A stretch of 63,478 nt of DNA, taken from IMG/VR virus record IMGVR_UViG_3300009596_000001, positions 1 through 63,478 of that record; one strand, given 5' to 3'. Positions 1-63,451 of this stretch are shown here, one piece after another (the first letter of the stretch is position 1; each line of letters opens with the position of its first letter). The position numbers were made by a program, and so were the translations under genes. The DNA is from a virus. Lineage: Duplodnaviria; Caudoviricetes. The notes under the pieces are model-generated. The model did not search any database. It was not told the DNA's origin and worked only from the letters and a program-made list of their open reading frames with translations.

Positions 1-123
1 GGAGACATAACTCCATTAAGCGAAAGGTCACTACGAGGGATAAACAGGGAAGACATGCAACCTCCGGGTAGGGGACTTCTACAAATTTGGAGGTGACCTT
101 TCTTGATTAAAATCTTCACTGCC
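1..123. repeat. Terminal direct repeat, left copy (identical to 63356-63478); most likely a circular-assembly overlap
   Basis: Exact 123-nt identity between the contig ends; the ATP-grasp ORF stop and the next ORF start read continuously across the junction. Confidence 0.95.
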
Positions 124-756: not shown

Positions 757-793
757 AATCTATAGCGATATTTGCTCAAGGAGGTGTAGTGAA

Positions 794-2539: not shown

Positions 2540-2566
2540 GTCTTACTTCTCCTTTTCCGCATAACA

Positions 2567-2590
2567 CCCGCCCCCAGTGATGGGGGCGGG
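2567..2590. terminator. GC-rich hairpin, possible terminator
   Basis: CCCGCCCCCA-GTGA-TGGGGGCGGG inverted repeat in an intergenic gap; no strong U-tract. Confidence 0.4.
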
Positions 2591-2637
2591 CTGGCAATCC
2601 TTCAACATTGCGGGAAATAGGCTCTTGCCTGTTCCCG

Positions 2638-3135
2638 TCAAGCAGGCAAGATGCCCTTCTTCGCCGCATTCAACTCTTCTTTGCCTTCGTCTCTGGCGGC
2701 TGGCTGGTCTTTGACACCTTCGTCTGGGGGTTGGGAATGTGTCCCTTCCCCGACCGTTCCTTCCTCTTGAAAGGCGACAACTTCTTGCTCGCAGGTGCGT
2801 CTCTGAAGGACATCTCTGTCACCTCCTCTATTTAGAATTCTGTTAACTGAATGCGCAGAGGAAAGAATAAACAGTGTCGTCGCTAATTGGTAAGCATCAT
2901 CGGTAGTCAGTAACAGGGTAACAGCAATACTTCGTTTGGCATCGCTGATAAATAGAATAACGGAATTGTCGCTCTGTCGGAATTTATCGGGGAGTTTTTC
3001 TTTCAACACATCTGGAATAGAGACAAGGTCTACATAGATGTTGTTGGAAGATGGTATCAACACGACAGACACCATCGTTGCTGTTTCGTTGTCTACCTTG
3101 TTAATCGGCAAGTCAAACACTTCTTGTGACATCAC
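2638..3135 (-). CDS. Hypothetical protein
   Basis: ORF coupled to the upstream gene by a GTGA overlap; fits the operon. Confidence 0.6.
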   Translation of the reverse strand: MMSQEVFDLPINKVDNETATMVSVVLIPSSNNIYVDLVSIPDVLKEKLPDKFRQSDNSVILFISDAKRSIAVTLLLTTDDAYQLATTLFILSSAHSVNRILNRGGDRDVLQRRTCEQEVVAFQEEGTVGEGTHSQPPDEGVKDQPAARDEGKEELNAAKKGILPA

Positions 3136-4169
3136 TTTTCACCTGCCTTGTTAACGATAATTTGTGTGACTTCTACGGCTTTCATCGGCGGGACTATATT
3201 ATGCGCTTCTAAAAGCGATTTCGCAAGGGTAGTATCTAACCTGTGTTGTATTATCCGCTTGATTTGTATTGTGCCATAGTGAGTTTCGTAAGTTCTGTCA
3301 GGTGGAAGGAGTTCAATTAGTTGTGCTCGTAGAAGTTTCTGCTGCTCTCGGTAGGGTTGAAGTTCCTGTTCAACTTCGTCTATGATATGTGTGACTTTGA
3401 TGTAGTTGTTGATGAGTTCTTCAAGTCGGCTTGCAACGGTTGGGTCGCCTGCAGTTGCGATAAGTTCATTTCTGGCGGTAGAGTTGGGGTGACAAATGTG
3501 GTAGAAGTAACAGAGTGCTGTGCCTTCTCGGGTTACGAATTTACAGGGGTAACTATCTGCTCTATAGCGTGGAAGAATTTCGTCATACCTGTCAGAATTC
3601 TGAAGTGCGTTTTTCACGGTGGTAACGAAGGGGAACACTTCTTCTTGAAGGATTTGGACAATGTCTTCGTCGGTAAAGATAACGGTGCTGTAACGGGTCG
3701 GGTTGGTTCTGTCAACATAGTAAAGGACAGCATGGGATGCTTGGACTAACGCAGCATAAATCGCAATCTGTCGCCTATGGGAAGGATAATTGGCTGTGGA
3801 AACAACAGACGGGCTGACGAATTTGAAGTCGTAAACAACTACTTTATCATCCTTCTTAGCGAGTAAGTCAATTCTGGCATCCCAAGTCACTCCAAACAGC
3901 GTTGCGGTTACGGGAACTTCAACTTGGACATCCCAGCCTTCTTCTTCAAGCAGTTTTGCAACTTTGGGAACAAAGTATTCGTGTAGCGCTTGTCCAATCT
4001 GTCCAAGCCAACCAATGTCCCGCCACGATAACGGGTTTCCATTTTCGGGTTGGGTTATGCGGAAGAAGACGCAGCGTTCACAAGTTAGTTGGCTCGGTTT
4101 CCAATTCTCCCATTTCAACGCTTCCGGTGTCGGCAGATACAGAGGCGGTGTAAGTTCGTGCCTGTCCAT
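3132..4169 (-). CDS. Cas4-like PD-(D/E)XK exonuclease
   Basis: PSQL-CERC at the N-terminus, RIDLL..VYDFK core, QIAIYA motif, C-terminal Cys cluster (PCK...CYFYHIC); adjacent to Bet. Confidence 0.85.
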   Translation of the reverse strand: MDRHELTPPLYLPTPEALKWENWKPSQLTCERCVFFRITQPENGNPLSWRDIGWLGQIGQALHEYFVPKVAKLLEEEGWDVQVEVPVTATLFGVTWDARIDLLAKKDDKVVVYDFKFVSPSVVSTANYPSHRRQIAIYAALVQASHAVLYYVDRTNPTRYSTVIFTDEDIVQILQEEVFPFVTTVKNALQNSDRYDEILPRYRADSYPCKFVTREGTALCYFYHICHPNSTARNELIATAGDPTVASRLEELINNYIKVTHIIDEVEQELQPYREQQKLLRAQLIELLPPDRTYETHYGTIQIKRIIQHRLDTTLAKSLLEAHNIVPPMKAVEVTQIIVNKAGEK

Positions 4170-4971
4170 TTATATCACCTCCCATTTCTTCTGGAATGTA
4201 TAGACCCGAAAGCAAATCGGGAAATGCTTTCCGAAAGGCATGCGCCTCTGCGACCTTCTGTATCATTGTCGCAGGCATTACCTTCCACGAAGCCTTTTCC
4301 CGATTATATTCGGACAACAACACTTTCTGCCACACCTCCGTGATTTTCCCCTCCTGCTCAAGATAAACAACGCACCAACCGCCGTAGAGCGTCCAGCCCG
4401 GAGGAACAAATGCTCCTTCAACTTCCATTATGTCAACCTCGTGCTGGGAAAGTTCGTCTTCTATTTTGTGAAGTTCAAGGAGCGCTTCCAATATCTCGGC
4501 TTTGTGTTCGGACACTTTATCAGCAATTTCTCGTAGTAACTTCTCTGTTTTTTGTAAAAATTCATGTCGTTTCTTGTCGGGATTGCGCCGAATAACGATA
4601 ACGCCGCTTTTGAAGCCACGATAACTTTCGTGGCGGGTGGCAACCCTCATAAACGCAAACCGACTGACTATAATTTGTGCGGGTTCACGCTCGTCATACT
4701 TGACAAGGTAGGCGTCAGATAGGAACGGGTTCAAGCGATAGGTCTTACACACTGCGATGAACTTGGCGATGTCTACAAGGTTTGCTTTCGGGTTGATGAA
4801 GTCACGAACGATTTTAGGCGACAGTTTGATTTCTTGTCCTGTCCAATCCTCGTAAACGACAATAGAGGCTTGCGCCTCTGTGCCCGAGATAACAGGAGTT
4901 TGCTGCTTTTCCGTCATTTCTTCTGCGACCTCCTTTGCTCTTTGGAGTTTTTCTTTCAGTCGCTCCTGCAT
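4078..4971 (-). CDS. bet: Phage single-strand annealing protein (Bet/RecT family)
   Basis: LNPF..AYLVKY, GGWC, SW..MPATMIQKVAEAHAFRKAFP..SGLY.PEEM signature. Confidence 0.9.
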   Translation of the reverse strand: MQERLKEKLQRAKEVAEEMTEKQQTPVISGTEAQASIVVYEDWTGQEIKLSPKIVRDFINPKANLVDIAKFIAVCKTYRLNPFLSDAYLVKYDEREPAQIIVSRFAFMRVATRHESYRGFKSGVIVIRRNPDKKRHEFLQKTEKLLREIADKVSEHKAEILEALLELHKIEDELSQHEVDIMEVEGAFVPPGWTLYGGWCVVYLEQEGKITEVWQKVLLSEYNREKASWKVMPATMIQKVAEAHAFRKAFPDLLSGLYIPEEMGGDINGQARTYTASVSADTGSVEMGELETEPTNL

Positions 4972-13462: not shown

Positions 13463-13969
13463 TTAGATTAGACTGTCGTTGAGGGACATTAGCACGAGGA
13501 TTGATGTAATTTGATGTATTAATTCATCAACATTAAAATACTCAAAATGATGATAAATAGAAGAGTGCGGTGAACTATAACGGAGGATATAAGTTGGGGG
13601 CACTCTATCAAAAAACCTGAATTGAATAATCATCCTATCACCTTCTCTTTCCCTATTAATGTGAATAGTTCCCCAGCCATCGCCGCTAACTCTCGCTTTA
13701 ATCCTCAACATAGTCACCATGAACGATACACATCTTTCCACCATATCATACACAGCAACACACACCGAGTTTACCGATACCTGCCAATCAAAAACTATTT
13801 GCGGGTTGCGGCATTTTATTTCTACAAGGAGCACTTCATCTGTCAGTTTTTCTATCGTGTAATTAAGTTCTAAATGCGGAAAGTATTTCTTTAGTGCCTT
13901 GACTGTTGCGTCCATAATTTCCTTTACTTTCATTGTGGTATTTAGAATAGTAGTGTGTTTATTTTTCAT
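13463..13969 (-). CDS. Hypothetical protein; possible highly diverged member of the paralog array
   Basis: 168 aa from MKNKH with GGAGGTG RBS and ATGA coupling; similar size and hydrophobic C-terminal helix, but no CxxC. Confidence 0.7.
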   Translation of the reverse strand: MKNKHTTILNTTMKVKEIMDATVKALKKYFPHLELNYTIEKLTDEVLLVEIKCRNPQIVFDWQVSVNSVCVAVYDMVERCVSFMVTMLRIKARVSGDGWGTIHINREREGDRMIIQFRFFDRVPPTYILRYSSPHSSIYHHFEYFNVDELIHQITSILVLMSLNDSLI

Positions 13970-14520
13970 ACTGAAGCACCTCCTTCTTCTGCGGCTTGAA
14001 TAACATTCATAATACCCCATACGGTTTGAATTAATTTATCAAATGGCACTTTTATTTTTCTTTCGTTGCATACGCCGTCAATTTCTGTGTAGCAAGTTAT
14101 AGTTGCTGTTACTTTTCCCCAACCCTTTACGACATCTTCCGCCAACACCGCATCCCATTCCACCCTTAATGCTTGTTTCCCGCATCGCATATAAAACCCA
14201 TTCACCTCCCATATCTCCACCCAGTGAAACCCTACTTTACTTGCCAGCCTCACCAAGAAATCAGATATGAATTTAATCAAACTATCGTGCAAATCTTCGT
14301 TTATGAATGCGAGCGTATATCCGTCCCGCTCGTGGGGTGAATTATAGTAGTGATACACCACTACCATAATTTCATCACCCCATTCTTTTGTATGGTATAC
14401 ATAATTACCCGTGTTCAGTCCATTCACGCTTTTCACCACCTCCTCCATCCATTCCAAGATAGGACAAATAACACGAACCAAACGCCTAACTTTTGGTGGA
14501 TAAAGTAACAGTTTCATCAT
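13966..14520 (-). CDS. Hypothetical protein; possible diverged member of the paralog array
   Basis: GGAGGTG RBS, coupled; similar length; LHDSLIKF resembles the array SLH...F helix. Confidence 0.7.
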   Translation of the reverse strand: MMKLLLYPPKVRRLVRVICPILEWMEEVVKSVNGLNTGNYVYHTKEWGDEIMVVVYHYYNSPHERDGYTLAFINEDLHDSLIKFISDFLVRLASKVGFHWVEIWEVNGFYMRCGKQALRVEWDAVLAEDVVKGWGKVTATITCYTEIDGVCNERKIKVPFDKLIQTVWGIMNVIQAAEEGGASV

Positions 14521-15047
14521 AAATCACCTCCTATCAATGTGTGCGCATAAAGTATTACAAATATTTCTGCAATTTTGTAGGCAATTTGTCGCAATAATTC
14601 AATATTGTTTTCGTCAATACTGCTATGTCCGGGAATTTTATCAAACACACATAACTGCGTATCGTTGCAATAAAAAACGATATTGTTGCGATTTACTTCT
14701 GCAGCAAAGAGAATGTCATCATTAAATCTAATTAAGATGTAGTGAATTGTGATGTAACAATTTAGCGTGAAGGGCACCGAGAAGCACTGTAATAAGCGCC
14801 TGACAAATGCGGAAAATGGTTTCTCGTAATATTTATTTATACCATGCGGCGTTGGTAAATAATGATAATAAACTTTATTTACTTGCGGCATACTAAACCA
14901 CACATTTTCAACATGCGACTCGGTGTCATGTTCCACCTCAACTATCCGTGCTTGCAACTCATTTACCCCTACTTTCTTTACGATATCATTAAAATACCCA
15001 ATAAACTCAAACGGCAAATTGCACAGTGCACATTTTTTTCGCTTCAT
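14517..15047 (-). CDS. Diverged paralog-array protein (CxxC...H...H)
   Basis: CALC, ESHVENV and PTPH correspond to the conserved array positions. Confidence 0.75.
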   Translation of the reverse strand: MKRKKCALCNLPFEFIGYFNDIVKKVGVNELQARIVEVEHDTESHVENVWFSMPQVNKVYYHYLPTPHGINKYYEKPFSAFVRRLLQCFSVPFTLNCYITIHYILIRFNDDILFAAEVNRNNIVFYCNDTQLCVFDKIPGHSSIDENNIELLRQIAYKIAEIFVILYAHTLIGGDL

Positions 15048-15562
15048 ACTTCGTTCACCTCCTCAATTGTTTTTAGCATTACAAAGAAATTTATCAAAAA
15101 CCCTATCGTTTCTTCAAGTCCCTCCACCCTACAAACTAATCCCCGCTGTGCTTCCACAACATTTAAAGCAATCTTATCGTGAAGAAATTCAAATTGATAA
15201 ATATGTCCAAAATTATCATATACCTTTGGAATACCATCCACAAAAAATGCATTTCGCATTTCAAATATTTCTTTCAACATCCGCCACATCCCACGCATAA
15301 AAGCCCCTACCGATGTATATCCATGAATTGTTCGCAACCACACATACCCATCACGAGAAAACAACGCCACCTCTACCAAGTGTCCTTCATCTATTTCCAT
15401 AAACACCGGAGAAATACATAAATTGCTTTTACCACACCTCCGTAGATGTAAATTTATAAACTTGATTGCCTTCCTTGCTATTTCACATGCTTCACATTCT
15501 TTCAACCCCCACGCTTCCTTTCTTTTTTGTGGTTCCTTCTTGAACACATCACAATACATCAA
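15044..15562 (-). CDS. Paralog-array protein 6
   Basis: P.KRKEAWG..ECEAC, EGHL, RTIH, VEGLEETIGFL. Confidence 0.9.
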   Translation of the reverse strand: MMYCDVFKKEPQKRKEAWGLKECEACEIARKAIKFINLHLRRCGKSNLCISPVFMEIDEGHLVEVALFSRDGYVWLRTIHGYTSVGAFMRGMWRMLKEIFEMRNAFFVDGIPKVYDNFGHIYQFEFLHDKIALNVVEAQRGLVCRVEGLEETIGFLINFFVMLKTIEEVNEV

Positions 15563-16068
15563 AAATTCACCTCCTCAATTGTTTTTAGCATCACCAGAAA
15601 ATTCACTAAAAATTCTATTGTTTCTTCAAATCCTTCTATTCTGTAAACTAATCCTTGCTGTGCCTCAACAATATCCACACCAATCTTATCTGAGTGGAAC
15701 TGAAATTGGTAGATATATCCTTGCGTTAGGTGGTATACTGAGGGAACACCGTCTGCTAAGAATGCGCTTCGTATCCCCACCGCTTCCTTGACTATCCGCC
15801 ACACATCCCGCATAAACGCTACAATTGACTGCCTATGCAGTGTTTCCAGCCACACATACCCATCGCCCACACACAACACCGCCCTTATCAAATGCCCCTC
15901 TATTACACCTACAAATGCTGGGTAGATGTATATGTTTTTCAAGCACTTGTGTAGATACAAATTTACAAATTTTATCGCTCTCCTTGCCATTTCACAATCT
16001 TCACACCCCTTTTCTCCCCACAGTTGCCTTCTCTCCGCAGGTTTTTGTTTAAGCACATCATAGAACAT
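15559..16068 (-). CDS. Paralog-array protein 5
   Basis: P.ERRQLWG..GCEDC, EGHL, ETLH, IEGFEETIEFL. Confidence 0.9.
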   Translation of the reverse strand: MFYDVLKQKPAERRQLWGEKGCEDCEMARRAIKFVNLYLHKCLKNIYIYPAFVGVIEGHLIRAVLCVGDGYVWLETLHRQSIVAFMRDVWRIVKEAVGIRSAFLADGVPSVYHLTQGYIYQFQFHSDKIGVDIVEAQQGLVYRIEGFEETIEFLVNFLVMLKTIEEVNF

Positions 16069-16576
16069 CGGAATTCACCTCCGTTTCGGATATTTCTAAC
16101 ATTGCAAATAAATTTAGTAAAAACTCAATTATTTCTTCTAATCCTTCTATTTTACAAACAAATCCTGAAGGAGAAATCACATTAACACGAAATTCATTAT
16201 CAGAAAATTCTAATCTATATTGCCACCCAAACTCACCATACACAATGGGGATATTACCAACACGTTCATTCACCTTAAACACAAATCTAAGTATTGACCA
16301 TACTCCACCGAAAAAACTTGAAAGTTTGTTGTTTTTATGCAATGACCACATCCACAATCGCTTATCCCCATACACCAACTCAACTCCCACTACATGACAC
16401 TGCACTATTTGTGTTACTGTAGGAACAAAACTTTTATTTCGCCTAAGATACTTGCGTAGATACCAGTTCACATATCCCACAACTCCCCACAACAACTCGC
16501 ATTCATAACAACCCCTCATTCCCAATGCCCCCCTCTTTTCTCCCGGTGTCATTTGTTTTAACTCAAAATACGCCAT
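16058..16576 (-). CDS. Paralog-array protein 4
   Basis: P.EKRGALG..GCYEC, QCHV, WSLH, IEGLEEIIEFL. Confidence 0.9.
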   Translation of the reverse strand: MAYFELKQMTPGEKRGALGMRGCYECELLWGVVGYVNWYLRKYLRRNKSFVPTVTQIVQCHVVGVELVYGDKRLWMWSLHKNNKLSSFFGGVWSILRFVFKVNERVGNIPIVYGEFGWQYRLEFSDNEFRVNVISPSGFVCKIEGLEEIIEFLLNLFAMLEISETEVNSDVL

Positions 16577-17091
16577 TATAATTCACCTCCTTCAATTTGT
16601 CCCAACATTGCAAACACACTCACCAAAAATTCAACTGTTTCACCAACCCCTTTAACAACAAACACATCCCCGCTTGCTGTAAAAACCTTCACACCAAATT
16701 CATTTTCAAAAAATTCAAACCTATATTTCCATCCCCGCTCGTCGTAAACCGCCGGCACATTTACGACAATAAAGGGGATAGAAATTTTGAATATAATTCC
16801 CATAATTCTCCACACACACTTCTCTAAAAATTCTTGTAAATTATCAAATTGATGCGGCGATTTAATTGCTACATATTTTGAGTGTAAAAGCACAGTTACA
16901 GACATTAAGTGCTTGCGATATATCTCCGTCTCCATCGGCACAAGTTTTAACTCTCTCCTGCCACATTTATGCAGACACTTGTTTATTTCCCGTATCACCT
17001 TTTGCAGCATCACACATTTACAACACCACCTCTTGCCCCATACTTCTCTTCTTTTTACAGGTTTCACTTGCGAGAGTTTATTATACATCAC
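16576..17091 (-). CDS. Paralog-array protein 3
   Basis: P.KRREVWG..WCCKC, RKHL, KSPH, VKGVGETVEFL. Confidence 0.9.
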   Translation of the reverse strand: MMYNKLSQVKPVKRREVWGKRWCCKCVMLQKVIREINKCLHKCGRRELKLVPMETEIYRKHLMSVTVLLHSKYVAIKSPHQFDNLQEFLEKCVWRIMGIIFKISIPFIVVNVPAVYDERGWKYRFEFFENEFGVKVFTASGDVFVVKGVGETVEFLVSVFAMLGQIEGGEL

Positions 17092-17596
17092 ATGACACCT
17101 CCTCTTGGCTGTTATAGAGCATGATGGCGAAACTTACTAAAAATTTGATTGTTTCTTCTACCCCTTTTATCTCGCACACTTCCCCTGACGGCAACCTCAC
17201 CCTTAAACCAAATTCTTCGTTTGAAAACTTTAATCTATACCACACAACATTACCCCCACACATAACCTGAATAGAACCTTCATTCAACAATCCAGCCACC
17301 CCAACAACATTTGCCACTAATCCACACACCTCTTTCATAAACCCATGCATCCCCTCAACGTGCAGCGACCACACCCGCAATCTCCCAAAACTAAATTCCA
17401 GTCCTACATCTATGACGTGCCCTTCCCTCTTGTATACCTCTACCGGAACCACACACAAATCCCCAAAACCACACTTCCGCAAATAGAAGTTCATATACCT
17501 AATCACATCAAGCATCAGCATACACACGCTACATTCCTTAATTCCCCAAACCGACTTTCTTTTTTCAGGTTTCACTTTTCTTAGGTTATAATACAT
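17081..17596 (-). CDS. Paralog-array protein 2
   Basis: P.KRKSVWG..ECSVC, EGHV, WSLH, IKGVEETIKFL. Confidence 0.9.
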   Translation of the reverse strand: MYYNLRKVKPEKRKSVWGIKECSVCMLMLDVIRYMNFYLRKCGFGDLCVVPVEVYKREGHVIDVGLEFSFGRLRVWSLHVEGMHGFMKEVCGLVANVVGVAGLLNEGSIQVMCGGNVVWYRLKFSNEEFGLRVRLPSGEVCEIKGVEETIKFLVSFAIMLYNSQEEVSCDV

Positions 17597-17597
17597 T

Positions 17598-18113
17598 CTA
17601 CTTCACCTCCTCGCTTAAGTTTGAATTGTGAAGTATGATGGCAAAATTCACTAAAAATTTGATTGTTTCTTCTAATCCTTTTACCACACATATTTCACCA
17701 GTTGATAACTTCATCCTTAATCCAAATTCATTTGCCAAAAACTCTAATTCATACTGCACAGTATCACCACCACATTCAACCGAAATAACACCTTCCTTTA
17801 ACAATTTTTCTACACCAACCACCTCGCTTATTAATCTACACACCTCTTCCAAAAACCTGTGTATACCAGAGAAATGCAATGACCACACCCAGCAATTCCA
17901 ACCGCAACATTCCATCCCTACATCTATCACGTGCCCCTCTTCCTTATATACTTCTGCGGGAAACACCCGTAAATCTCTACGACCATACCTCTTCAAATAC
18001 CGGTTCAAATGCCTAACCACCTCCAGCGTTGCCTCACACATACTACACTCTCCAATCTTCCACACAGCCTTTCTTTTACCGGGCTCTATTTTTCTAATGT
18101 TATAATACATCAT
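17598..18113 (-). CDS. Paralog-array protein 1
   Basis: P.KRKAVWK..ECSMC, EGHV, WSLH, VKGLEETIKFL. Confidence 0.9.
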   Translation of the reverse strand: MMYYNIRKIEPGKRKAVWKIGECSMCEATLEVVRHLNRYLKRYGRRDLRVFPAEVYKEEGHVIDVGMECCGWNCWVWSLHFSGIHRFLEEVCRLISEVVGVEKLLKEGVISVECGGDTVQYELEFLANEFGLRMKLSTGEICVVKGLEETIKFLVNFAIILHNSNLSEEVK

Positions 18114-18145: not shown

Positions 18146-19474
18146 TCAATCAACATTGATATTAATCACTACTGCGGGCGGTGGTATATCAACTTCTTTA
18201 TCACCTACCACCACCACGATTAACCTTACATCCACATCCTCTACTCCAGCCCAATCGCACCAGCCGTCTGTCAAAACCACAACTTCGTCAAACTGACCCC
18301 ACTGCAATACCTCTTTTATCGCTGCCACCATGTCCGTTCCACCACCGCCAATAAGTTCTATTTCGTCCACACTACCTACCTCTTTGGGCTCTCCTTTCAA
18401 GCATGTGTCTGCGCACACGACAGACACACGCTTTCTTACTTCTAAAATTGCACGAACCTCGGACAGGACTGCCGCCAACTCCCTTTCCGACATTGAGCCG
18501 CTTGTGTCAATAATGACACAAGAGCGGCTCGGCGAGTGCAGCCTGTCCGTAGGTAGGATGATATTCTCGTCAATAAATGCTCTTTTCGCACGATGAAAAT
18601 CCTTGCGTAGAACTGACGGCTTACTGCGTGCACGGGTTAACTTGTCACGCAGTATTTGCCGCCAGTCTACTTTTGCGGGCTCCAACGCTCTATCCACCAC
18701 AATTTGCAGTTCCCCGGGCAAGTTACCGACGGTTTTTGCTGCGTCGGCAACTTGCCGCAAAACCTCCCGCCTGAACTCTTCGGTGATGATGCGGTCATCC
18801 TCCTCCTGTTCCCATTCAGCCTTCCGCCCTGTAACCCCACTACCCTCGTTTTGCGCTTTTTCCACCGCTTCCTTCAACTTTTCACCTGCCCCGCCGTCAT
18901 CACTTTTTCTTTGCGACGGGGCAGAGGATGATGCGGAGGATGACGACGAAGAAGATGCAGAAGAAGACGCAGAAGAAGACGAAGAAGAAGCGGGCGAGGA
19001 TGCGGACTGCATGCGGCGCATTATTTCTTCGGCATACTCCTCCGCTGTTAATCCCCAAGGCAATCCATAGTTGACGGGGAGTAACATACCGAACGCGCGC
19101 ATCTCTTTCTCCCATTTCTCTCCGCCGACCTCACGGAGAATTGAATTCACCGCAAGGTCGGCTGCTATGTTAGCCACGTTCGCAGGATACTGCTTCATTC
19201 GTTCTCCATGCTGCGCTGCAGCATGGAGAACTTCGTGGACGAAAACGATAAACTGTCGCTCACTATTCTGTTGAAGCATTTGCGGGTCCACATACAACGT
19301 CCACCTTTCATCCACCCCCATCGTGTGGAACGGCAAGTTCTGGACCCGCAGCCTCAACTGCACTGCGACGGGGTAAAGATACGGCAACTCCCGCCGCAAC
19401 CGTAGACGACACTCCTCTAACATTCCTGCCACTTGAATGATAAATTCATTCTGCTTCTGTTGCGTCATCGTCAT
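18146..19474 (-). CDS. HExxH metallopeptidase-like plus vWA domain protein (DUF2201-like)
   Basis: TMGVD, HEVLH, NIAADLAVN; poly-Ser linker; MIDAS DTSGSM, GGGGTD, LTDG. Confidence 0.9.
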   Translation of the reverse strand: MTMTQQKQNEFIIQVAGMLEECRLRLRRELPYLYPVAVQLRLRVQNLPFHTMGVDERWTLYVDPQMLQQNSERQFIVFVHEVLHAAAQHGERMKQYPANVANIAADLAVNSILREVGGEKWEKEMRAFGMLLPVNYGLPWGLTAEEYAEEIMRRMQSASSPASSSSSSASSSASSSSSSSASSSAPSQRKSDDGGAGEKLKEAVEKAQNEGSGVTGRKAEWEQEEDDRIITEEFRREVLRQVADAAKTVGNLPGELQIVVDRALEPAKVDWRQILRDKLTRARSKPSVLRKDFHRAKRAFIDENIILPTDRLHSPSRSCVIIDTSGSMSERELAAVLSEVRAILEVRKRVSVVCADTCLKGEPKEVGSVDEIELIGGGGTDMVAAIKEVLQWGQFDEVVVLTDGWCDWAGVEDVDVRLIVVVVGDKEVDIPPPAVVININVD

Positions 19475-20653
19475 TCACCTCCGTGAAATAATTTGCGTCA
19501 ACTGTATATCCAAGATGCCTGCGCGCAGCATGTATCTGCTACATGCTGCACGCAGGCGCTCGGACACGTCTGAAAGTTTCGCGCACTTATATTCATCCAA
19601 TATTAACTTAAATTTGGTTTGCACGAACGCAACGAAATCTTCAGTTTTGTATGATGACACGACGCCGATAATGCCCGACATCACCGCAAAAGCGATGTCG
19701 GGCTTAGATGGGTGCAGATATTCTTTAAGGATTGCGGGGTTTTTAATTACATCTACGGGGTTAGGCAGTCTTGTGTTTTGTATGTAGACGATAAGTTGTG
19801 CTGCTGCCGCTTGACCCACCGTTGCGCACGCTACCATGCTCCACTCCGAGGCGGTCATGTTTGTGACCGCCATCATTCGTGCGCATAAATCCCATGTTCT
19901 CCTTGACGGGAACACGGGATTTTTTCTGTCAATCGTGCTAACACGCCTGAATTGCGGGTTCGCTTTCAAGAAACCCGCAACGAGCATGTTAGCACGCATG
20001 AAATTTTCTCGTGCGGTTTCAGGGGAAATATTATTAACAGATACATTACAGGAGTTTTTGCGGGACACGAGCCACTCCAACCACTCGTCATCTCCCGCTT
20101 CGTCGGGCAGCAGCGTAAAGTGCGCTGCCCGATTGCAGAACGCGGGCGTGAGTGGTATATCGTTATAACTCACGCCCGGGGGATTTGATAACGCTATAAA
20201 ACGCACATTGGGGTTGGGTTGGAAGCGGTAAATTGCACGGGGGTTTTCAATCGCCAGCGTATCATACACGACGCCTTGCAGGGCGGCAATCACGTCCGCC
20301 CTGGCGTCGTTCAATTCCTCAAGAAGCACGATTGTTGGCTCGTCAGACGACATTGCGTCTGCGAGCCATCTGGGGGGCAGAAAATCCATTACGCCATCCT
20401 CCTCGCATTTCACGGGATATCCGCCTACATCTTCGGGCACCATTCTGGTTGCCCGAATTTCAAGTAGACGGAACCCGTTTTGCCGGGCGAATTCGTTCAC
20501 AATACTGCTTTTTCCTTCGCCCGGCAAAGACCACACGACAATTAACCGTGCCCCGAACTCGGGGTCACGGACAATAAAACGGAGCGGTTCGGACATGCTT
20601 ACGACCTTTGCGCCAATTAGCGTCTGTTCAGCACGCATTGTGAACACCTCCAT
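19475..20653 (-). CDS. MoxR-like AAA+ ATPase
   Basis: SLPGEGKS Walker A, EDVGGYP, PPRW, IVLLEEL Walker B variant, SNP, PAFCNR, FPSRRTW. Confidence 0.9.
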   Translation of the reverse strand: MEVFTMRAEQTLIGAKVVSMSEPLRFIVRDPEFGARLIVVWSLPGEGKSSIVNEFARQNGFRLLEIRATRMVPEDVGGYPVKCEEDGVMDFLPPRWLADAMSSDEPTIVLLEELNDARADVIAALQGVVYDTLAIENPRAIYRFQPNPNVRFIALSNPPGVSYNDIPLTPAFCNRAAHFTLLPDEAGDDEWLEWLVSRKNSCNVSVNNISPETARENFMRANMLVAGFLKANPQFRRVSTIDRKNPVFPSRRTWDLCARMMAVTNMTASEWSMVACATVGQAAAAQLIVYIQNTRLPNPVDVIKNPAILKEYLHPSKPDIAFAVMSGIIGVVSSYKTEDFVAFVQTKFKLILDEYKCAKLSDVSERLRAACSRYMLRAGILDIQLTQIISRR

Positions 20654-21865: not shown

Positions 21866-22294
21866 TCAATCACCCAGGCGGCGATTGAACCACCAGGGAT
21901 GTCTCTCTTTTAGCAAGCGCTTCAATTCGCCGCCCAATTGGTCCGGATACGCTTCCACCGCATCCGGACCAAAACGAGAAAGGAACGACAACAAGTCGGA
22001 CGGATACAGCAGGAATTCCTTGAATTCCTGCCGTATGCCGTCCCACTGACGGCAACGCAACCACCAGGTTTTTTCATCTAACTCCAGAAGCACTTCATTC
22101 CATGCCTCTGGAGTCTTGCGGGAAACCAGAACCTTCCACCGCCGCACCAAGGCTGCGGCGACGAAGGTGAACTGGCGTGATAACGACACGAAGTAGGTGA
22201 AGAAGGGTTTTTGCACGGGAGGGTGCTGGATAATTTCCACCACCCCTTTCTCCAACATACACACTTCTTTAATCGCCAATTCACGCCTGGTCAT
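21866..22294 (-). CDS. Hypothetical early protein
   Basis: AGGAGGGG RBS; bounded by repeat unit A and a terminator. Confidence 0.7.
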   Translation of the reverse strand: MTRRELAIKEVCMLEKGVVEIIQHPPVQKPFFTYFVSLSRQFTFVAAALVRRWKVLVSRKTPEAWNEVLLELDEKTWWLRCRQWDGIRQEFKEFLLYPSDLLSFLSRFGPDAVEAYPDQLGGELKRLLKERHPWWFNRRLGD

Positions 22295-22336
22295 CTTTCT
22301 TCCCCTCCTTTTTGTTTTTGCGCCGCCATATCGGCG

Positions 22337-22366
22337 GCGCTAAGCCCACAATGGTGCGATTGCTGC
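22337..22366 (-). repeat. CRISPR-repeat-like unit A
   Basis: GCAGC-AATCGCACCATTGTGGG-CTTAGCGC. Confidence 0.6.
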
Positions 22367-22370
22367 GATT

Positions 22371-22414
22371 AAAAAGGCACAGCACGGCTTTAATTACAAC
22401 CACCGTGCTGTGCC
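22371..22414 (-). terminator. Intrinsic terminator
   Basis: GGCACAGCACGG...CCGTGCTGTGCC stem followed by T5. Confidence 0.7.
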
Positions 22415-22420
22415 CACAAA

Positions 22421-22621
22421 CTAATCGTTGCGGAGGGGGGTAATTTCAAATTTCCACATCCAACTGATGCGCCCCTCCTCTTTATCTTTAAGGAGGGACG
22501 CCTTTTGTTTCTCTGCGCATTCGGCGCAGAGAAACACTTCTACATCAAACCCCTCTGCCCCAAGATAAACATGTGTTACCCGCACTGAGGCGGGCTCGGA
22601 ACATTTGCGACACTTTTCCAT
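22421..22621 (-). CDS. Small CxxC...CxxC zinc-binding early protein (66 aa)
   Basis: GGAGG RBS before MEKCRKC; CAEC. Confidence 0.7.
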   Translation of the reverse strand: MEKCRKCSEPASVRVTHVYLGAEGFDVEVFLCAECAEKQKASLLKDKEEGRISWMWKFEITPLRND

Positions 22622-22674
22622 CTTAATCGCCTCCTGCATCATATAATTGTAGCACGAAACGACACGGCATATCG

Positions 22675-22704
22675 CCGCCAATCCCACATTGGTGCGATTG
22701 CTGC
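22675..22704 (-). repeat. CRISPR-repeat-like unit B
   Basis: GCAGC-AATCGCACCAATGTGGG-ATTGGCGG. Confidence 0.65.
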
Positions 22705-22708
22705 AATT

Positions 22709-22744
22709 AAAAAGAAAACCCCGCCGCCGATATGGCGGCGGGGG
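22709..22744 (-). terminator. Intrinsic terminator with an ATATC loop
   Basis: CCCCGCCGCC-ATATC-GGCGGCGGGG followed by TTTTCTTTTT. Confidence 0.75.
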
Positions 22745-22850
22745 TGCGACGGGAGGGGCACGCTGGGCAGATAATTGTAACGATTATTGTAAAAATGATT
22801 GCAACGATTATTGTAAAGATGATTGTAGAACGACACGACATATCGTCGTG

Positions 22851-22880
22851 CCGTCAATCCCACAATGGTGCGATTTAAAA
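22851..22880 (-). repeat. CRISPR-repeat-like unit C
   Basis: TTTTA-AATCGCACCATTGTGGG-ATTGACGG. Confidence 0.65.
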
Positions 22881-22882
22881 TC

Positions 22883-22919
22883 AAAAAAACAAACCCCGGC
22901 GGCTTTGGTGCCGCCGGGG
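22883..22919 (-). terminator. Intrinsic terminator
   Basis: CCCCGGCGGC-loop-GCCGCCGGGG followed by TTTGTTTTTTT. Confidence 0.75.
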
Positions 22920-22935
22920 CTGCGGACTTGGCGGA

Positions 22936-23334
22936 TTACTTCAGCAAAATGTCCGCCAAGTCCTGCAACAACTGGCGGGTCCTTGACGCACTTCGGCGTC
23001 CCTCGCGGGCTACGCCGAAGTGCAAGAAACTTCCGTCTCTGCCTCTACTAACCCTGATAGGGACAGGATTACCGTTAATGGTGAATTCCACGACAAAGGG
23101 ATTGAAAGGTTGGAATTTTTTCCCTGTGGGTGCGGATAGGGCAGTGTGACCCGACCGAGGTCTGGTCACAAAGTCAAGTGACCGTTCTGCAATGACTGTA
23201 GCCACAAGAGTGACCACAGCCCTTTGAAAATCGTCTAACTTTTCTACATCAACCTCAATCCTCACACTTTGCCCTTCCGCCACCAAAATTTCACCCTGCG
23301 TCGTCCAATTGACTTGGGACTTTTTACTTGCCAT
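22936..23334 (-). CDS. First early gene, hypothetical basic protein
   Basis: GGAGG RBS before MASKK; directly downstream of a consensus promoter. Confidence 0.75.
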   Translation of the reverse strand: MASKKSQVNWTTQGEILVAEGQSVRIEVDVEKLDDFQRAVVTLVATVIAERSLDFVTRPRSGHTALSAPTGKKFQPFNPFVVEFTINGNPVPIRVSRGRDGSFLHFGVAREGRRSASRTRQLLQDLADILLK

Positions 23335-23391
23335 CTTCAATCCCTCCTTACTTGTTGAATTTCCCGCAGCCTATCGCTGCGGTCATCATCA

Positions 23392-23420
23392 ATTATAGCC
23401 GTCAAAACTTGTCCAGTCAA
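23392..23420 (-). promoter_or_regulatory. Strong sigma70-type early promoter
   Basis: TTGACT-N17-TATAAT with an AT-rich upstream element. Confidence 0.85.
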
Positions 23421-23469
23421 CACAAAAAATTCCAGAATTGCCTGACACAATCCTGTAGCCCTGTCTATT

Positions 23470-24220
23470 TCATTTTGCTTCACTTTCATCACCTTTTAAC
23501 ATTTATTCACCTTTTCAACATTTATTCACCTTCTTCACTTTGTCACCCTTGCCCCATTTTCACCAATTCAATCTCACAAACTTATTTTGAATTTTGTTGC
23601 AAAACATATAAAACCTCACAAACCTCAACAACCCATCAAACCTCACAAACCCTACAAAATCGCACAAAAAGCGACAAACTGTCAAAAATGTGACAACTTG
23701 TTCAAATTGCTTTAACCTCACAAAATTCGCAAACCTTACAAATTTCATAAACCTCACAAAATCGCAACAAATTGCCTTAATTGCATCAAGTCGTTTATGT
23801 TGTTCAAATTGCATCAAGTTACTAAACTTGACAAATTACTCAAACCTCACAAAAATGCAACAAACTTAGAATTGACCAAACCAGCGATATCATCACAAAA
23901 CCTAAAAGCGTCAAAACACTTAAAAATTGTTTGTGTCTAAATTATGTCCAAGTTTGTAAGTGTAACAGTAATTTAAACTTTGTTTCTTTCGCATTTTTGT
24001 TAAACTTTTTCTATTTTCATTTTTGCACTAACTTTTCCGATTTTACCTGTCATCGCTGCTGTTGCTTTACTTAACCCTTCCGTAAGTTTTTAAGTTTTGC
24101 AATTTTTTGCTGAAGTTTTCGCTTTGATTGATTTTTGCCTGCCACAAAACTTGACTAATTTTTACCTGCTGCAAAAACTTGACAGAGTTTTTGTTTCGTC
24201 AGTTTTCGCAAAACTTGCTA
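23470..24220. repeat. Non-coding strand-switch region with ~9-bp periodic degenerate repeats
   Basis: TTCAC-type units, then AAACCTCAC/CAAA-type units, then T-tract units; no credible ORF. Confidence 0.7.
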
Positions 24221-24324
24221 AATGCCCCCACCCCCTGTCGCCGCTTTTTTAAAGCCGTATCGCCCCAAAAATTTTGCAAGACACTGTCGTGTGTGTTAAA
24301 ATTAAAACTGGAGGTGACGGCATC

Positions 24325-58600: not shown

Positions 58601-61600
58601 TTCGTTGGCTCAAATGGGTGTTCCGAGCAACATTATTGAAGAAGCCGATAAGGCGATGTGGCAAGTTAAAGCAACCGTCAATGCAACTGTGAAAGAACTG
58701 ATGAAGCGACCAACATCACCACAAGCAGCAATGAAGCGTATCCGTGAAGTGTTAGGGCAAGCGCAAAAGGTAATCTCCAGATTGTTCAGTATGGTTGCTT
58801 ATACCCGTTACACTCCGCTGGCAAAGCAAATGAAGGGCAAACTTGCGCCTACAATGCTTGGTTCTCCGTTCCTTGCCCTTGAAGCCGATTTAAGACATAC
58901 TACCGTCCGCATGTATAACGAACCCTTTAGACAAGACTTCTTCTCTGCTGCATCTTCTACTTTCCCCGACGAAATCCTTGCGTTGCCTGAAGTTATTCAA
59001 CTGGAGAATGCACTTAACGCAGGTAAGGTTACCCCAATGCAAATGTTGGCAACTTTAGAAAGCAGAATGGATGCTTTGTTGACGGAGTTGGCGCAGGCTT
59101 CTGGCAGAAGAAAAGAAGAAATTGAAGCAGATTATAACAGGATACTTTATGCCGTCTACAAGTATGCAAGCAATACTGTTGATGATGCCCATAGGGTTCA
59201 CAGAGTGGAAGATGTTTTCGCCAAAGGTCTTGTCGCTTTGAATGCACCGGTAGTTTTAGACCCACGCAGGACAACATCGCCAGCAGTTGCACAAATAAGG
59301 ACAAAGTTGCTTAAACTTGCTGTTCCTTATGCCGTGTTGATGAACTACCTTGTAAAAATGTATGCTATGCGTGCATTTCTGGAAGATATGTATGTTGGCA
59401 TGGAGCCGTCTTTCGGCTTAACCGAAGAAAGATATGTGCCACAATGGCATGACTTGGCACTTAACCCCGGGACAGTCTTAGCGGATATGGTTCTTCAGAC
59501 TTTTGATAGATTGCCGACAAAGATGACTAAGAAACCGTTTGAGTTCAAGAGGACAGGTCTTGCGGAGATTAACGATGCCGATTTCAGAAATATCATGCGT
59601 CGTGGACTGTATGCTTTGGCTTCCAAGCATGTATTGAATAAGCATCGCCCTGTTGTTGAGGCTGTAATCGGTTTCATGCCGCCGCCGTTTAAACAAATGC
59701 TTGCGTGGCAATTAGCAAATACTCTTGCGCCTTTGCGTGTTGGAGAACAAGGTGGAATTCCATTGACTTACGAAATGGGAGAAGATATCGCCAATGCCAT
59801 CCAAGAAATGTTTAGCCTTGTCGGTCAATATTACCTGAACCAAATGCGTGCTATGGAAGGGTTGCCGCAAGATAAACTAACTGCAGTATTGTCAGCATTC
59901 CAAACTCAGTCTCTGATTTTCCAACTCAGGTCGCCATTCAGGCAAATGGGTTCATTGATTTATGCTGGAAGCGCTTTGTCCAGAGACTTTAACGACCCTG
60001 TTGCGTTCATCATGCCCATCCTGTTCTTCCCTCGTGCACTCAAGATTGTTAGCCAATACATGACAGGAAAGCAACCAAAACTTAATATCCTTGAGCGGGT
60101 TGTTCTGGAGAATTCGCCCGAATTGTTCTCCCGCAGAAGTGTAACCGAACGGGCAATATTGGAAGGTGCAAGGGAAGCAATTAACACGATAATGATGCAT
60201 CCAGAAGGTGCGAAGGCTGTAGAGATACTGTTAGACCCAACGGCAAGCAGGGCTGACAAGGATAAAGCGATGGACTTCATCCAGCAGGTGTTTATTGTTG
60301 GCGGCGAACCGACAAGGCGGAACAAGTTTAAGTCCGCTGTCAGTAAATGGGGCTTCTTCTTGTTGAGGTTAATGGATGAAGCAGCGGTTTTGGCAACAAA
60401 ATTGGCAGCAGTCCACACTTACATGGCACATCAAGATGTAACTGGAACTTATGACTTTAACACTATTCATGCAGCAATTAACTACGGTTCTGCTTTTAGC
60501 GAACGAGTTCACGCAACACCACTTGAAGGTTACAGACCAACCCTGTTCAGAGGACCGGCTGAAAGGAAACTTTCAATCAAACACCTATTCTTCATCCCGC
60601 AAGTGTTCAGTCAGTTCCTTGTCTACACATTCGCAACAGCGGACAACTTCAGGATGATGCTTGGCGATATCTACGACAATATCGTCAGGAAAGACATTCC
60701 TTTGAAGGAAAAGATTGCAAACCTTGCAACAGCAGCAACGGCAATTATGGCATTGCAGTTAGGAACTGCTATCTTCAACGGTGTCTGGGTTGGTCTAACT
60801 CAGCGTGTCCTTGAAGACCAACCCATCGGAATTTGGACGAAAGAGGAAGAAGAAAGGGATGTTTTAGGCACATTTGAAGGTATGGCTGCTGCAATGACCA
60901 AATCGGCTATGCCAAGACCCGCATCTTTCGTTATTTCCTACTTCCTTGCATTGACGCCGCTTCGGTCAATGATACTCAAGAAAACTTTGTTGGGTAACCT
61001 AACAGAACGAGACTTGCCGCCGTTAATGCGGTTGGGTTATCGGAGTTTGGGCGAGACAATAAGTATCTTAAGCAACCTTACCGCAATTTCCGATACCGCT
61101 GGGGAAGATAAAGGCATCCTGCAGAAACTTTGGGATGCTGTTACAGTGACATATCCGAGAGAGCAAATTCCAAGCACCTTGATTGACCTTGCACAATTTG
61201 CAAGCATCCTTGCCGCTCCATATGTCCCAGAGGCTGGCTTGTTGCCGTTCGGGCTTGTTTCCCCAGCAGTAAGGGCTGTTATAGGCAGCGAGGAACTTCC
61301 TGTCGCAGCGGAGATTACCGAAACATTCGCAGGGCGACCTACAGCAGCAAAGATAGTTCAATCCATGACAGGAATTCCCGCACCGTTTGGATACTCAGAG
61401 ATATGGTCGCCAGCACCGGCAGATATTGCATTCAGGTCGGCAGAAAGAAGTCCAATTAGGATGGCTTACAAATTCGTGAATGAAACTGAAAGAAGCACAG
61501 CGGCTGCTTATGTGGCAGAATTAGTTAGGGTCGCAAGAACAACAAGAATTGGACCGACCTTAAATGCTATCAGGCACTTACTCAATCCATCGTTCTATTT

Positions 61601-62054: not shown

Positions 62055-63451
62055 TGCCTAAGGGTAAGTTTCTAATCTACAGCACAGAAGGTTGGGGTTG
62101 GAATATAGCGCCACTTCTGAAAGAAGCGGGGCATGAAGCCGTAGTCTATATTGCAGACGAGGAAATTAAGCATGTTGGGGATGGTTTGTGCGATAAAGTG
62201 GATGATTGGAGAGAAGTTTTGGGAACTGACAGATATAGGGAGTGGATTGTCGTTTGGGATAACATCAAGCACGGAGAAGTAGCAGATATGCTTAGAAGAG
62301 AGGGTTGGAGAGTATGGGGCGGCGGTCGGTTTGCCGATAAGTTGGAAAAAGACAGAGAGTTCGGGCGGATGTTTGCAGAAAGAGCGGGATTGAATGTTCC
62401 GCCAACCCAAACTTTTCCCAATGCAAGGGCTGCATTGGAGTTTGTTAGGGCTAATCCAGACAGATATGTCCTTAAACCCCACGACAACAAGATTGCTGTT
62501 TATGTTGCTTATGGTGTTGAAGATGCCGAAGAAATGTTGGAATATTGGGCAAACATGACAGATTTGGAAGACACTCAAGTAGATGTCCAGAAATACATTG
62601 TGGGGCGAAATGTTGATGTTGAGGTATGGTGGCACAACGGTGTGATGATAGGACCGCCCAACTACGACATTGAAACGAAGTTCTTTTACCCTGACGATAT
62701 GGGACCGATTGTTGGCTGCATGACTTCTGTGGTTTGGTGGTCTGATAAGGCATCAAGGGGATGGGATGTGCTTAAGCAGATAAAACCTTTAATGCAAAGA
62801 ATTAAGTGGACGGGTCCTATTTCAGCGAACATAATTGTGGAAGAAACTACGCACAAACTTTATGTTCTTGAGTGGACACCAAGGTTCGGTTATAATGCTT
62901 ACTACTGCTTGTGGGAATTGTATTCTGATTGGGGCGAATTGTTTATGAGGACTTTTGAAGCGACAGAAGACCTTATCTTACCCGTTAACACCCATCAGTT
63001 CGGTGTAGCAGCAGAAGTTTCAATCGCTCCTTATCCGTTTGAAAGCCCCGATAAAGAACTCATGCGGAAAGTTTATTCCACATTAGACGGAATGCCTTTG
63101 CACTTTGAAGACAACTACCCCGCAAAAGTTTACCCTTGTGATGCTCGTTTGGATGCTAACGGAAGGATTGTTTGTGCGGGTTTGAATGGAATTGTTGCAG
63201 AGGTTGTTGCTGTGGACGAAAATCCCGAGGCTGCTTGGGAAAGAGTTGTGGCAACGGTCAAGCAACTAAAAATCCCCACAAAACAAGCGAGAATAGCCGA
63301 TGGGATTAAGGATTTTCAAGAGTGGTTTACAAAGTTTAGAGATTGGAAAATTGTTGGAGACATAACTCCATTAAGCGAAAGGTCACTACGAGGGATAAAC
63401 AGGGAAGACATGCAACCTCCGGGTAGGGGACTTCTACAAATTTGGAGGTGA
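62054..63451 (+). CDS. ATP-grasp ligase, phosphoribosylamine-glycine ligase (PurD)-like
   Basis: LEKDREFG, VPPT..F, YVLKP, VQKYIVG, ETK...DMGPIVGCM (cf. PurD GPNTGGMG), LEWTPRFGY. Confidence 0.85.
   Translation: MPKGKFLIYSTEGWGWNIAPLLKEAGHEAVVYIADEEIKHVGDGLCDKVDDWREVLGTDRYREWIVVWDNIKHGEVADMLRREGWRVWGGGRFADKLEKDREFGRMFAERAGLNVPPTQTFPNARAALEFVRANPDRYVLKPHDNKIAVYVAYGVEDAEEMLEYWANMTDLEDTQVDVQKYIVGRNVDVEVWWHNGVMIGPPNYDIETKFFYPDDMGPIVGCMTSVVWWSDKASRGWDVLKQIKPLMQRIKWTGPISANIIVEETTHKLYVLEWTPRFGYNAYYCLWELYSDWGELFMRTFEATEDLILPVNTHQFGVAAEVSIAPYPFESPDKELMRKVYSTLDGMPLHFEDNYPAKVYPCDARLDANGRIVCAGLNGIVAEVVAVDENPEAAWERVVATVKQLKIPTKQARIADGIKDFQEWFTKFRDWKIVGDITPLSERSLRGINREDMQPPGRGLLQIWR

Follow-up and report, generated by a model that had tools for sequence, protein, structure and literature searches.

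Solitary CRISPR-repeat-like units at early gene boundaries of a hot-spring phage are candidate substrates of host Cas6

The viral genome studied here, IMG/VR record IMGVR_UViG_3300009596_000001 (Duplodnaviria; Caudoviricetes; positions 1 to 63,478, hereafter the window, meaning the whole 63,478-nt stretch that was analyzed), carries three short elements resembling a CRISPR-type repeat (CRISPR, short palindromic repeats that are clustered and regularly interspaced) at the head of its leftward gene block. The elements are best read as solitary repeat units (SRUs), the class that includes the RNA anti-CRISPRs (Racrs), with the CRISPR repeat of the hot-spring bacterium that the phage infects as their apparent source. 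They share sequence with repeats in arrays of hot-spring bacteria, the CRISPR-Cas system that goes with these arrays could be identified, spacers of the cognate arrays target the phages, and the units recur with a common anatomy. We consider it likely that they mimic the host repeat in the manner of Racrs, function at the RNA level, and serve as binding sites for host Cas6, which probably cuts them after GGG.

An earlier note on this DNA, made from its letters alone, had reported a 17-mer three times on the minus strand, each copy lying just after an intrinsic terminator and just before a hairpin with a GATAT loop. This three-copy observation is confirmed. The 17-mer AATCGCACCAWTGTGGG occurs on the minus strand at 22345–22361, 22683–22699, and 22859–22875, exactly as reported, with no further copy in the window when up to three mismatches are allowed, and the entire viral record holds the same three copies only. 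Dinucleotide-preserving shuffles of the window gave a mean of 0.37 matches, and three or more were reached in none of 100 shuffles. The 30-mers that the note had written out for the three units are also correct, and three terminators (T1, T2, and T3) and three GATAT-loop hairpins were located where the claimed order places them (Table 1). The sequences between the units were said not to be 35-nt spacers, and indeed the units start 176 and 338 nt apart and are separated by intervals of 159 and 321 nt that contain open reading frames (ORFs). One detail is doubtful: the interval after unit 1 had been described as a repetitive non-coding unit of ~150 nt, and an open 44-codon frame lies there, in which the TACAATAATCGT-like DNA repeats are Thr-Ile-Ile codons ("TACAAT" repeats).

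With these intervals, the window units do not form a CRISPR array or mini-array, in which spacers of ~30–40 nt would be expected (35–38 nt in the cognate arrays described below). They are solitary by the SRUFinder rule, in that other repeats, including partial ones, are more than ~100 bp away and no cas genes adjoin them, and they are intergenic, sitting between ORFs on a complete viral genome with terminal repeats. The annotated ORFs of the window record include no cas family, and searches of two phage records, that of the window (G000) and that of a complete relative (G006), found no Cas6. A Cracr would have an intact 5′ handle; the handle is degenerate in all three window units. As double-stranded DNA, the element is palindromic at 16 of 20 positions and differs from its own reverse strand at 4 of 21 positions, by substitution.

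Scanning viral contigs for the 17-mer identified one contig (L005) with three copies 66–68 nt apart, which is a CRISPR array with the repeat GCAGCAATCGCACCATTGTGGGATTGAAAG. Single matches in three other contigs (L004, L006, and L007) were rejected as chance, as they occur in other contexts with neither repeat-like flanks nor spacer matches. We then scanned genomes and metagenomes using the 17-mer plus ATTG as the query. Arrays were found in five hot-spring metagenome-assembled genomes (MAGs), comprising two Bacteroidia, "Ca. Thermosaccharophagus yellowstonensis," bacterium HR23, and one Armatimonadota bin, as well as on at least 120 metagenome contigs. The arrays contain at least 3,510 repeats in at least 22 variants and at least 3,257 unique spacers with a modal length of 36–37 nt, and the commonest repeat among the matches listed is GCAGCAATCGCACCATTGTGGGATTGAAAC. 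The earlier note had staked its CRISPR comparison on a host repeat matching at least ~20 of the first 25 nt; units 1, 2, and 3 match array repeats at 22, 24, and 24 of these positions, which upholds its CRISPR reading.

The arrays are Cas6-type and type I-B-style. Their repeats end in ATTGAAAC, which equals the 8-nt tag AUUGAAAC found on type I-B CRISPR RNAs (crRNAs) of M. maripaludis and C. thermocellum (PMC3479195); according to the same paper, one repeat is enough for Cas6b cleavage. Cas3, Cas4, and a Cas1b that scores 370 bits (type I-B cut-off, 304) flank one of the Bacteroidia arrays, and in the Armatimonadota MAG, Cas1b (452 bits) is followed directly by Cas6. Cas6 scores above its cut-off in all five array-bearing genomes, and the closest solved relatives of the Armatimonadota enzyme are of the Pyrococcus type (3PKM, E 1e-22). 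In addition to these genes, a type III-A Csm1/Cas10 (596 bits) is present in the Armatimonadota genome. Thirty protospacers, on both strands, share a 5′ CCN protospacer-adjacent motif (PAM), with C at −3 in 23 and at −2 in 25, a motif that fits type I targeting of DNA and confirms the orientation of the repeat. The host system is type I-B-style by the markers covered, namely Cas1b, Cas3, Cas4, Cas6, the tag, and the PAM.

To the arrays we compared 21 solitary units from nine loci. The repeat RNA is predicted to fold as CAAUC-G-CAC[CAUU]GUG-G-GAUUG (−9.5 kcal/mol). In this fold, the Cas6 cut expected after GGG would fall at the base of the upper stem, on its 3′ side, and the ATT(G) that the units retain behind GGG makes up the second strand of the lower stem. 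All substitutions within the 17-mer fall at positions 11–13 (UUG, AUG, CAG, UAG, GUA, and UUU), the apical loop of CCA[NNN]UGG. The first five nucleotides vary among the units, as they do among the array variants. Handle positions 27–29 read AAA in all 14 array variants with at least five copies each and in none of the 21 solitary units. The loop variants and the handle columns are the only parts of this comparison free of exact-seed bias. The signal is a stem whose sequence does not vary, with a loop that is free to change and a handle that has been dropped, as predicted for sequence-specific recognition by Cas6 without effector loading. The proposal that the phage replaced the handle with the start of a stem-loop holds up at the level of sequence, with a second hairpin 2–4 nt after the predicted cut. 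In both units of G006 (L008:974–1011 and 4428–4465, minus strand), the TGGGATTG part is duplicated in short tandem copies. One unit has a second TGGGATTG copy that continues into GATTGAAAC, a handle that is nearly complete, whereas the other has a third TGGGATTG copy that forms the stem of the downstream hairpin.

All 21 units lie on the strand of their flanking genes, in short gaps between co-directional small genes (110–137 nt for the unit-bearing gaps of contig L067), and three contigs (L056, L067, and L135) each have three units within 2–4 kb. A hairpin of −22.7 kcal/mol or below is found within 55 nt upstream of 17 of the 21 units (control, 6.8%), and one of −11 kcal/mol or below within 45 nt downstream of 16 (control, 24%). 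A start codon with a ribosome-binding site (RBS) follows 19 units, in 15 cases 18–65 nt past the predicted cut. Left out of the count were full-length repeats that stand singly at the edges of arrays or at leaders (L045, L046, L049, L076, L084, L093, L113, L115, L133, L137, and L141), degenerate array ends (L014, L089, and L043), and L021. Two single near-complete repeats on the minus strand (L110:7142, 29/30 nt, and L134:10442, 26/30 nt) are located on long metagenome contigs with no array nearby; a host regulatory repeat or another mobile element are candidate contexts for them.

Two of the unit-bearing phages are distant relatives of the window phage. The contig L164, found by a loop-tolerant motif scan, encodes an ATPase and a VWA protein that are 49 and 44% identical to those of the window and in the same order, and its unit lies upstream of this operon in the same arrangement of terminator, repeat hairpin, and second hairpin. 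In both (window 18146–20653, minus strand; L164:935–3195), a MoxR-like AAA ATPase is followed by a DUF2201 metallopeptidase-like/VWA protein. The complete phage G006 is 27–42% identical to the window phage in portal, TerL, and other structural genes. The unit has therefore remained intact while the phage proteins diverged strongly. A search for related loci with the window ATPase gave no match, one with TerL gave only relatives of 26–33% identity, and no similarity to the window was found for L054, L056, L067, L082, L096, or L135. Tyrosine and serine recombinases were absent from all three phage records searched (G000, G006, and G008), and with no integrase or resolvase the phages look virulent.

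Spacers from the cognate arrays match these phages. Two of the at least 3,257 unique spacers match the window (Table 1), the best reversed-spacer control match being 17 nt. G006 has 23 spacer matches, mostly at 100% identity, L082 has five, and L096 has one, with none in the reversed control; L164 has 10. The arrays that match the window carry the GCAGC variant of the repeat, which is the 5′ flank of units 2 and 3, and those that match G006 carry the GTCGC variant, with TTCGC in one G006 unit. Because the Armatimonadota bin is the only MAG with the GCAGC variant, it is the best host candidate, though a tentative one. One L033 array spacer matches 35 of 37 nt across the phage's own unit in L164 (46–81; unit at 63–82), such that a crRNA made from this spacer would contain the Cas6 hairpin. 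Positions 1–4200 of G006 (L161) hold two units together with 8 of the 23 spacer matches to this 50-kb phage, a cluster that may mean that spacers are preferentially acquired from the early region or that protospacers there are selected for. Since the cognate arrays, cas genes, PAM, and anti-phage spacers have all been identified, the mimicry has a real arms race behind it.

The window phage is podovirus-like, and its genes include those for a terminase, an SU10-type portal, a primase, a MoxR-like ATPase, and a VWA protein. An AT-rich region at ~23.4–24.3 kb separates two divergent gene blocks. The units occupy the head of the leftward one, where a sigma-70-like promoter lies 500–1,050 nt upstream of them (Table 1). 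In all three window units, the RNA fold shows a terminator, the repeat hairpin, and a GAUAU hairpin in succession, the last beginning 2–4 nt past the predicted cut; T3 is outside the loop limit of the terminator scan and is predicted by RNAfold. The whole window has five GATAT-loop hairpins whose stems reach 4 bp or more, four of them within the 540-nt stretch of the units. The promoter-proximal transcript also begins with a similar hairpin, so that every cassette opens with the same kind of 5′ structure. The small ORFs beside the units match no Pfam or PHROG family apart from sub-threshold, zinc-ribbon-like matches of the 66-aa ORF. Each GATAT loop holds an ATG that opens a frame (44, 15, and 12 codons), and the last two frames also cross the RBS of the next gene. 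These frames may reflect translational coupling or chance; the observation is post hoc and worth testing, and is no evidence for a mechanism. A sigma-70 promoter inside the units was considered and rejected, the spacer from TTGACG/TTGGCG to TACAAT being 24 nt and the promoter scan listing no site there. That TACAAT is equidistant in units 1 and 2 is better explained by paralogy of the two units, and in unit 1 TACAAT belongs to the codons of the 44-codon frame.

Table 1. Positions of the repeat units, surrounding signals and frames, and protospacers in the window
Feature	Position	Strand	Remarks
Unit 1, solitary repeat unit	22851..22880	-	TTTTA + 17-mer + ATTGACGG; matches array repeat at 22/25 first nt, 24/30 overall
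Unit 2, solitary repeat unit	22675..22704	-	GCAGC + 17-mer (loop variant A) + ATTGGCGG; matches array repeat at 24/25 first nt, 26/30 overall
Unit 3, solitary repeat unit	22337..22366	-	GCAGC + 17-mer + CTTAGCGC; matches array repeat at 24/25 first nt, including first 22/22, and 25/30 overall
Sigma-70-like promoter	23392..23420	-	TTGACT-17 nt-TATAAT, 11/12; head of leftward gene block
5′ hairpin	23364..23382	-	CCGCAGC-GATAG-GCTGCGG; just past promoter; z -3.7; resembles hairpins after the three units
First small ORF, 134 aa from TTG	22936..23340	-	ATG at 23334; no family match
Terminator T1	22892..22921	-	12-bp stem + T-run; hairpin scan
GAUAU-loop hairpin 1	22829..22855	-	11 bp including G-U pairs; directly after AUUG
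Open 44-codon frame, putative hydrophobic peptide	22707..22841	-	Starts at AUG inside GAUAU loop
Terminator T2	22719..22743	-	10 G-C pairs; plus-strand loop reads GATAT; hairpin scan
GAUAU-loop hairpin 2	22664..22678	-	RNA fold and loop scan
15-codon frame from loop AUG	22623..22670	-	Stop 1 nt before start codon of next ORF
66-aa Cys-rich (zinc-ribbon-like) ORF	22421..22621	-	Sub-threshold Pfam matches only
Terminator T3	22375..22415	-	14-bp stem then UUUUU; RNAfold prediction
GAUAU-loop hairpin 3	22320..22340	-	8 bp; RNA fold and loop scan
12-codon frame from loop AUG	22291..22329	-	TGA overlaps ATG of next ORF (ATGA)
142-aa ORF	21866..22294	-	No family match
Protospacer	62882..62917	+	33/36 match to spacer of array L127 (GCAGC variant); 5′ flank CCA
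Protospacer	59663..59700	-	38-nt spacer of array L136 (GCAGC variant); 29/30 aligned nt at ~59667-59696

Further features of the window lie outside this stretch. The AT-rich gap of ~800 nt between the divergent blocks (23460–24270) is packed with TTTGTGAGGTT-like words and other short direct repeats and may be an origin or regulatory region. Upstream of the VWA/ATPase pair are nine consecutive tandem ORFs of 169–185 aa (13463–18113, minus strand), two of which are weakly matched by L164. After the structural genes, a single ORF of 5,137 aa (46641–62054, plus strand) contains less than 1% cysteine in each 500-aa block, and its product may be a giant ejected virion protein.

We infer that the units are transcribed, that Cas6 binds and cleaves the resulting RNA, and that the benefit to the phage is a decoy for Cas6, the processing of mRNA, or the two combined. 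Terminator read-through would make the units part of the leftward early transcript, and each unit RNA is predicted to fold into the repeat hairpin (C)AAUC-G-CAC[loop]GUG-G-GAUU(G). Host Cas6 would bind this hairpin and probably cut after GGG, as in pre-crRNA. The cut would leave an upstream RNA with a terminator-type 3′ hairpin and a downstream RNA starting 2–4 nt before the GAUAU-loop hairpin, and each cleavage event would also occupy one Cas6 molecule. Since no unit keeps the AAA of the crRNA handle, the cleavage products do not seem to be made for effector loading. RacrIF1 is a precedent: Cas6f binds and processes this RNA, which can do without its handle (PMC10651486).

As the selected effect, processing of mRNA, which we regard as possible without thinking it probable, is the better fit to the position at gene boundaries, the hairpins capping both new ends, the structured upstream RNA, the missing handle, and the lack of an integrase. 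A group of virulent hot-spring phages might, on this proposal, have co-opted Cas6 as an operon-punctuation enzyme that cuts early polycistronic RNA at cassette boundaries, a scenario that we likewise hold to be possible but not probable. Each RNA would then end in a terminator-type hairpin and begin with a 5′-OH and a protective hairpin, as the promoter-proximal transcript also begins with a hairpin. In the window, the protective hairpins after the units have an AUG in the loop, from which a short frame would run up to the start codon of the next gene. If such punctuation occurs, an immune RNase would be a host factor on which the phage depends, and sequestration of Cas6 would be a side benefit.

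Several considerations weigh against reading the units as RNAs that Cas6 binds and cuts for the phage's benefit. Their role as Cas6 substrates is a prediction from sequence comparison. A search for sequencing runs listed one DNA run, a possible source of the window, and no RNA run. The host assignment rests on MAG binning plus two imperfect spacer matches. The promoter scan found no sigma-70-like promoter between terminator and gene at any window unit; since the units directly follow intrinsic terminators, their transcription depends on an assumed read-through from the promoter at 23420–23392. Because L054, L067, and L135 share sequence, the 21 units do not represent 21 independent events, and the exact-match seeds of the unit search partly build in the invariance of the core. 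Covariation support for the hairpin is weak because most of its pairs never vary; one pair is CG in 11 units, UA in two, UG in two, and other in five, and the covariation score was reached in 35–37 of 500 shuffles, so that we did not use it as evidence. In addition, titration of Cas6 would not disarm effector complexes loaded before infection, and the phages look virulent.

Other explanations account for part of these data. The units could be pure Racr decoys that only soak up Cas6, and perhaps other Cas proteins, thereby weakening crRNA production and primed adaptation; their location at gene boundaries would then be a by-product, intergenic gaps being the sole free space. Such a mechanism has been tested for types I-C, I-E, I-F, and V-A according to the relevant sections of PMC10651486, the phages are heavily targeted by cognate arrays, each transcript has three copies, and the units sit in the early region among small orphan ORFs like the usual anti-defense loci. 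We nevertheless hold this explanation to be doubtful, if quite conceivable. The inhibitory part of RacrIF1, as presented in those sections, is a single-stranded RNA upstream of the cut that nucleates a Cas7 filament, whereas the upstream RNA here is a very stable hairpin in 17 of the 21 units, which makes a RacrIF1-type Cas7-filament mechanism unlikely in these phages. A slow block of crRNA maturation would also be of little help to a virulent-looking phage in a single infection, and a decoy leaves unexplained both the hairpin after the cut (16 of 21 units) and the similar hairpin at the start of the promoter-proximal transcript. Functionless relics, either debris of a decayed phage mini-array or traces of past recombination with host arrays, strike us as highly improbable. 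Although mini-arrays and repeat fragments do occur in viruses (as reported in part of PMC11656645), the core of the units is intact in all copies while the handle and flanks vary freely, the same layout is present in a relative with less than 50% protein identity, and a spacing of 176 and 338 nt with genes between is unlike that of an array.

It is improbable, in our estimation, that the 17-mer is instead an N4-like promoter for a phage-encoded or virion RNA polymerase, or for a modified host polymerase, starting at or near GGG. The order of terminator, element, 5′ hairpin, RBS, and gene would fit a promoter equally well; the sigma-70-like promoter at 23420–23392 also precedes a similar hairpin; the motif occurs just three times, where the early block begins; and three early hairpin promoters together with a giant virion protein would recall N4-like phages. 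However, a promoter explains neither the identity to the core of the host CRISPR repeat nor the way in which the 5′ flank tracks the variant of the arrays targeting each phage, and a motif that is 17/17 identical between phages whose proteins are 27–49% identical would be odd if it co-evolved with a polymerase. G006 has units, yet tblastn found no match in it to the giant ORF of the window (E 1e-3). Searches with the giant ORF as a candidate virion RNA polymerase lend the promoter no support, which we do not take as disproof: both halves matched no Pfam or PHROG family and contained no DxDxD or motif-B-like pattern, phmmer against the PDB gave no match for one half and only matches of E 0.3 or worse for the other, and the embedding similarity to SLT/lysozyme-like phage proteins was weak (scores below 0.8). 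A PF00940 search of three phage records gave no match and is uninformative, as its control likewise went without a match in any genome. We give a similarly low chance to a role of the units as DNA, through recombination or integration with host arrays, as a decoy target for Cas1-Cas2, or as an operator. Recombination and integration are among the roles proposed for SRUs (in parts of PMC8616872 and PMC10651486), and the element is near-palindromic (16/20). Against this stand the lack of a tyrosine or serine recombinase in G000, G006, and G008, the deletions that three direct copies in 540 nt would invite if they recombined, and the location of 21 of 21 units on the gene strand, which points to a role in RNA or linked to transcription; an operator would, moreover, leave the CRISPR-repeat identity unexplained.

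The layout of strong hairpin, handle-less repeat hairpin, second hairpin, RBS, and gene comes at successive boundaries and stayed fixed while the proteins fell below 50% identity, and the previously tested Racrs are single units behind a promoter, from other subtypes. If the units are decoys, they would be a new Racr design for the Cas6-dependent type I-B/III systems of thermophiles; if they process mRNA, this would be the first example from nature in which a phage employs a Cas nuclease to mature its own mRNAs. The 5′ flank of a unit follows the repeat variant of the arrays targeting the phage and offers a handle for host prediction, and the repeat hairpin with its flanking hairpins might serve as a compact natural part for Cas6-based RNA processing at high temperature.

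The SRU/Racr class itself is known; what is apparently undescribed is a multi-copy, hairpin-flanked layout that punctuates gene cassettes, for a host with a Cas6-dependent type I-B/III system. In literature on SRUs and Racrs, on Cas6 acting on non-CRISPR mRNAs, and on mini-arrays, we found no description of repeat units punctuating phage operons or of natural phage use of Cas6 on mRNAs, and the supplements of PMC10651486 (an IMG/VR3 screen) may already list such contigs. The Racrs described in parts of PMC10651486 resemble the window units in being single phage-borne copies of the host repeat in intergenic positions without cas genes, in a host with the cognate system, and in retaining the part recognized by Cas6 with a dispensable 8-nt handle. 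They differ in that here there are three units per early transcript, placed after a terminator-type hairpin rather than a promoter and before a second hairpin and a gene, and in that the system here is type I-B with Cas6; "I-B" has no occurrence in the main text of PMC10651486. Cracr arrays, as outlined in part of bioRxiv 10.1101/2024.10.29.618823, similarly place several repeat-like elements, aimed at host CRISPR-Cas, in one phage transcription unit. According to the same part, however, these consist of a repeat, a pseudo-spacer of 21–24 nt, and a repeat, have a working 5′ handle, and guide Cas proteins to the promoters of cas or toxin genes. The window units are instead separated by the 159- and 321-nt intervals with ORFs and have a degenerate handle.

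Host arrays of the same repeat family (such as L013, L024, L017, and L127) share with the units 22–26 nt of the repeat, the predicted hairpin, and the predicted Cas6 cut site. Unlike these arrays, the window units lack 35–38-nt spacers, a leader, and nearby cas genes, and their handle does not contain AAA. Processing between early genes has a familiar counterpart in phage T7, which has RNase III processing sites between its early genes. In both phages, a host endoribonuclease would cut early polycistronic RNA at intergenic hairpins and so give hairpin-capped mRNAs; here, in contrast, the putative enzyme is a CRISPR-associated nuclease, the site is a copy of the host immune repeat, and the cleavage is a prediction. 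Synthetic "insulator" sites for Cas6/Csy4 have also been placed between the genes of engineered operons. Like the phage units, these put a site for a Cas6-family enzyme between cistrons and separate defined RNAs, although they are an engineered device.

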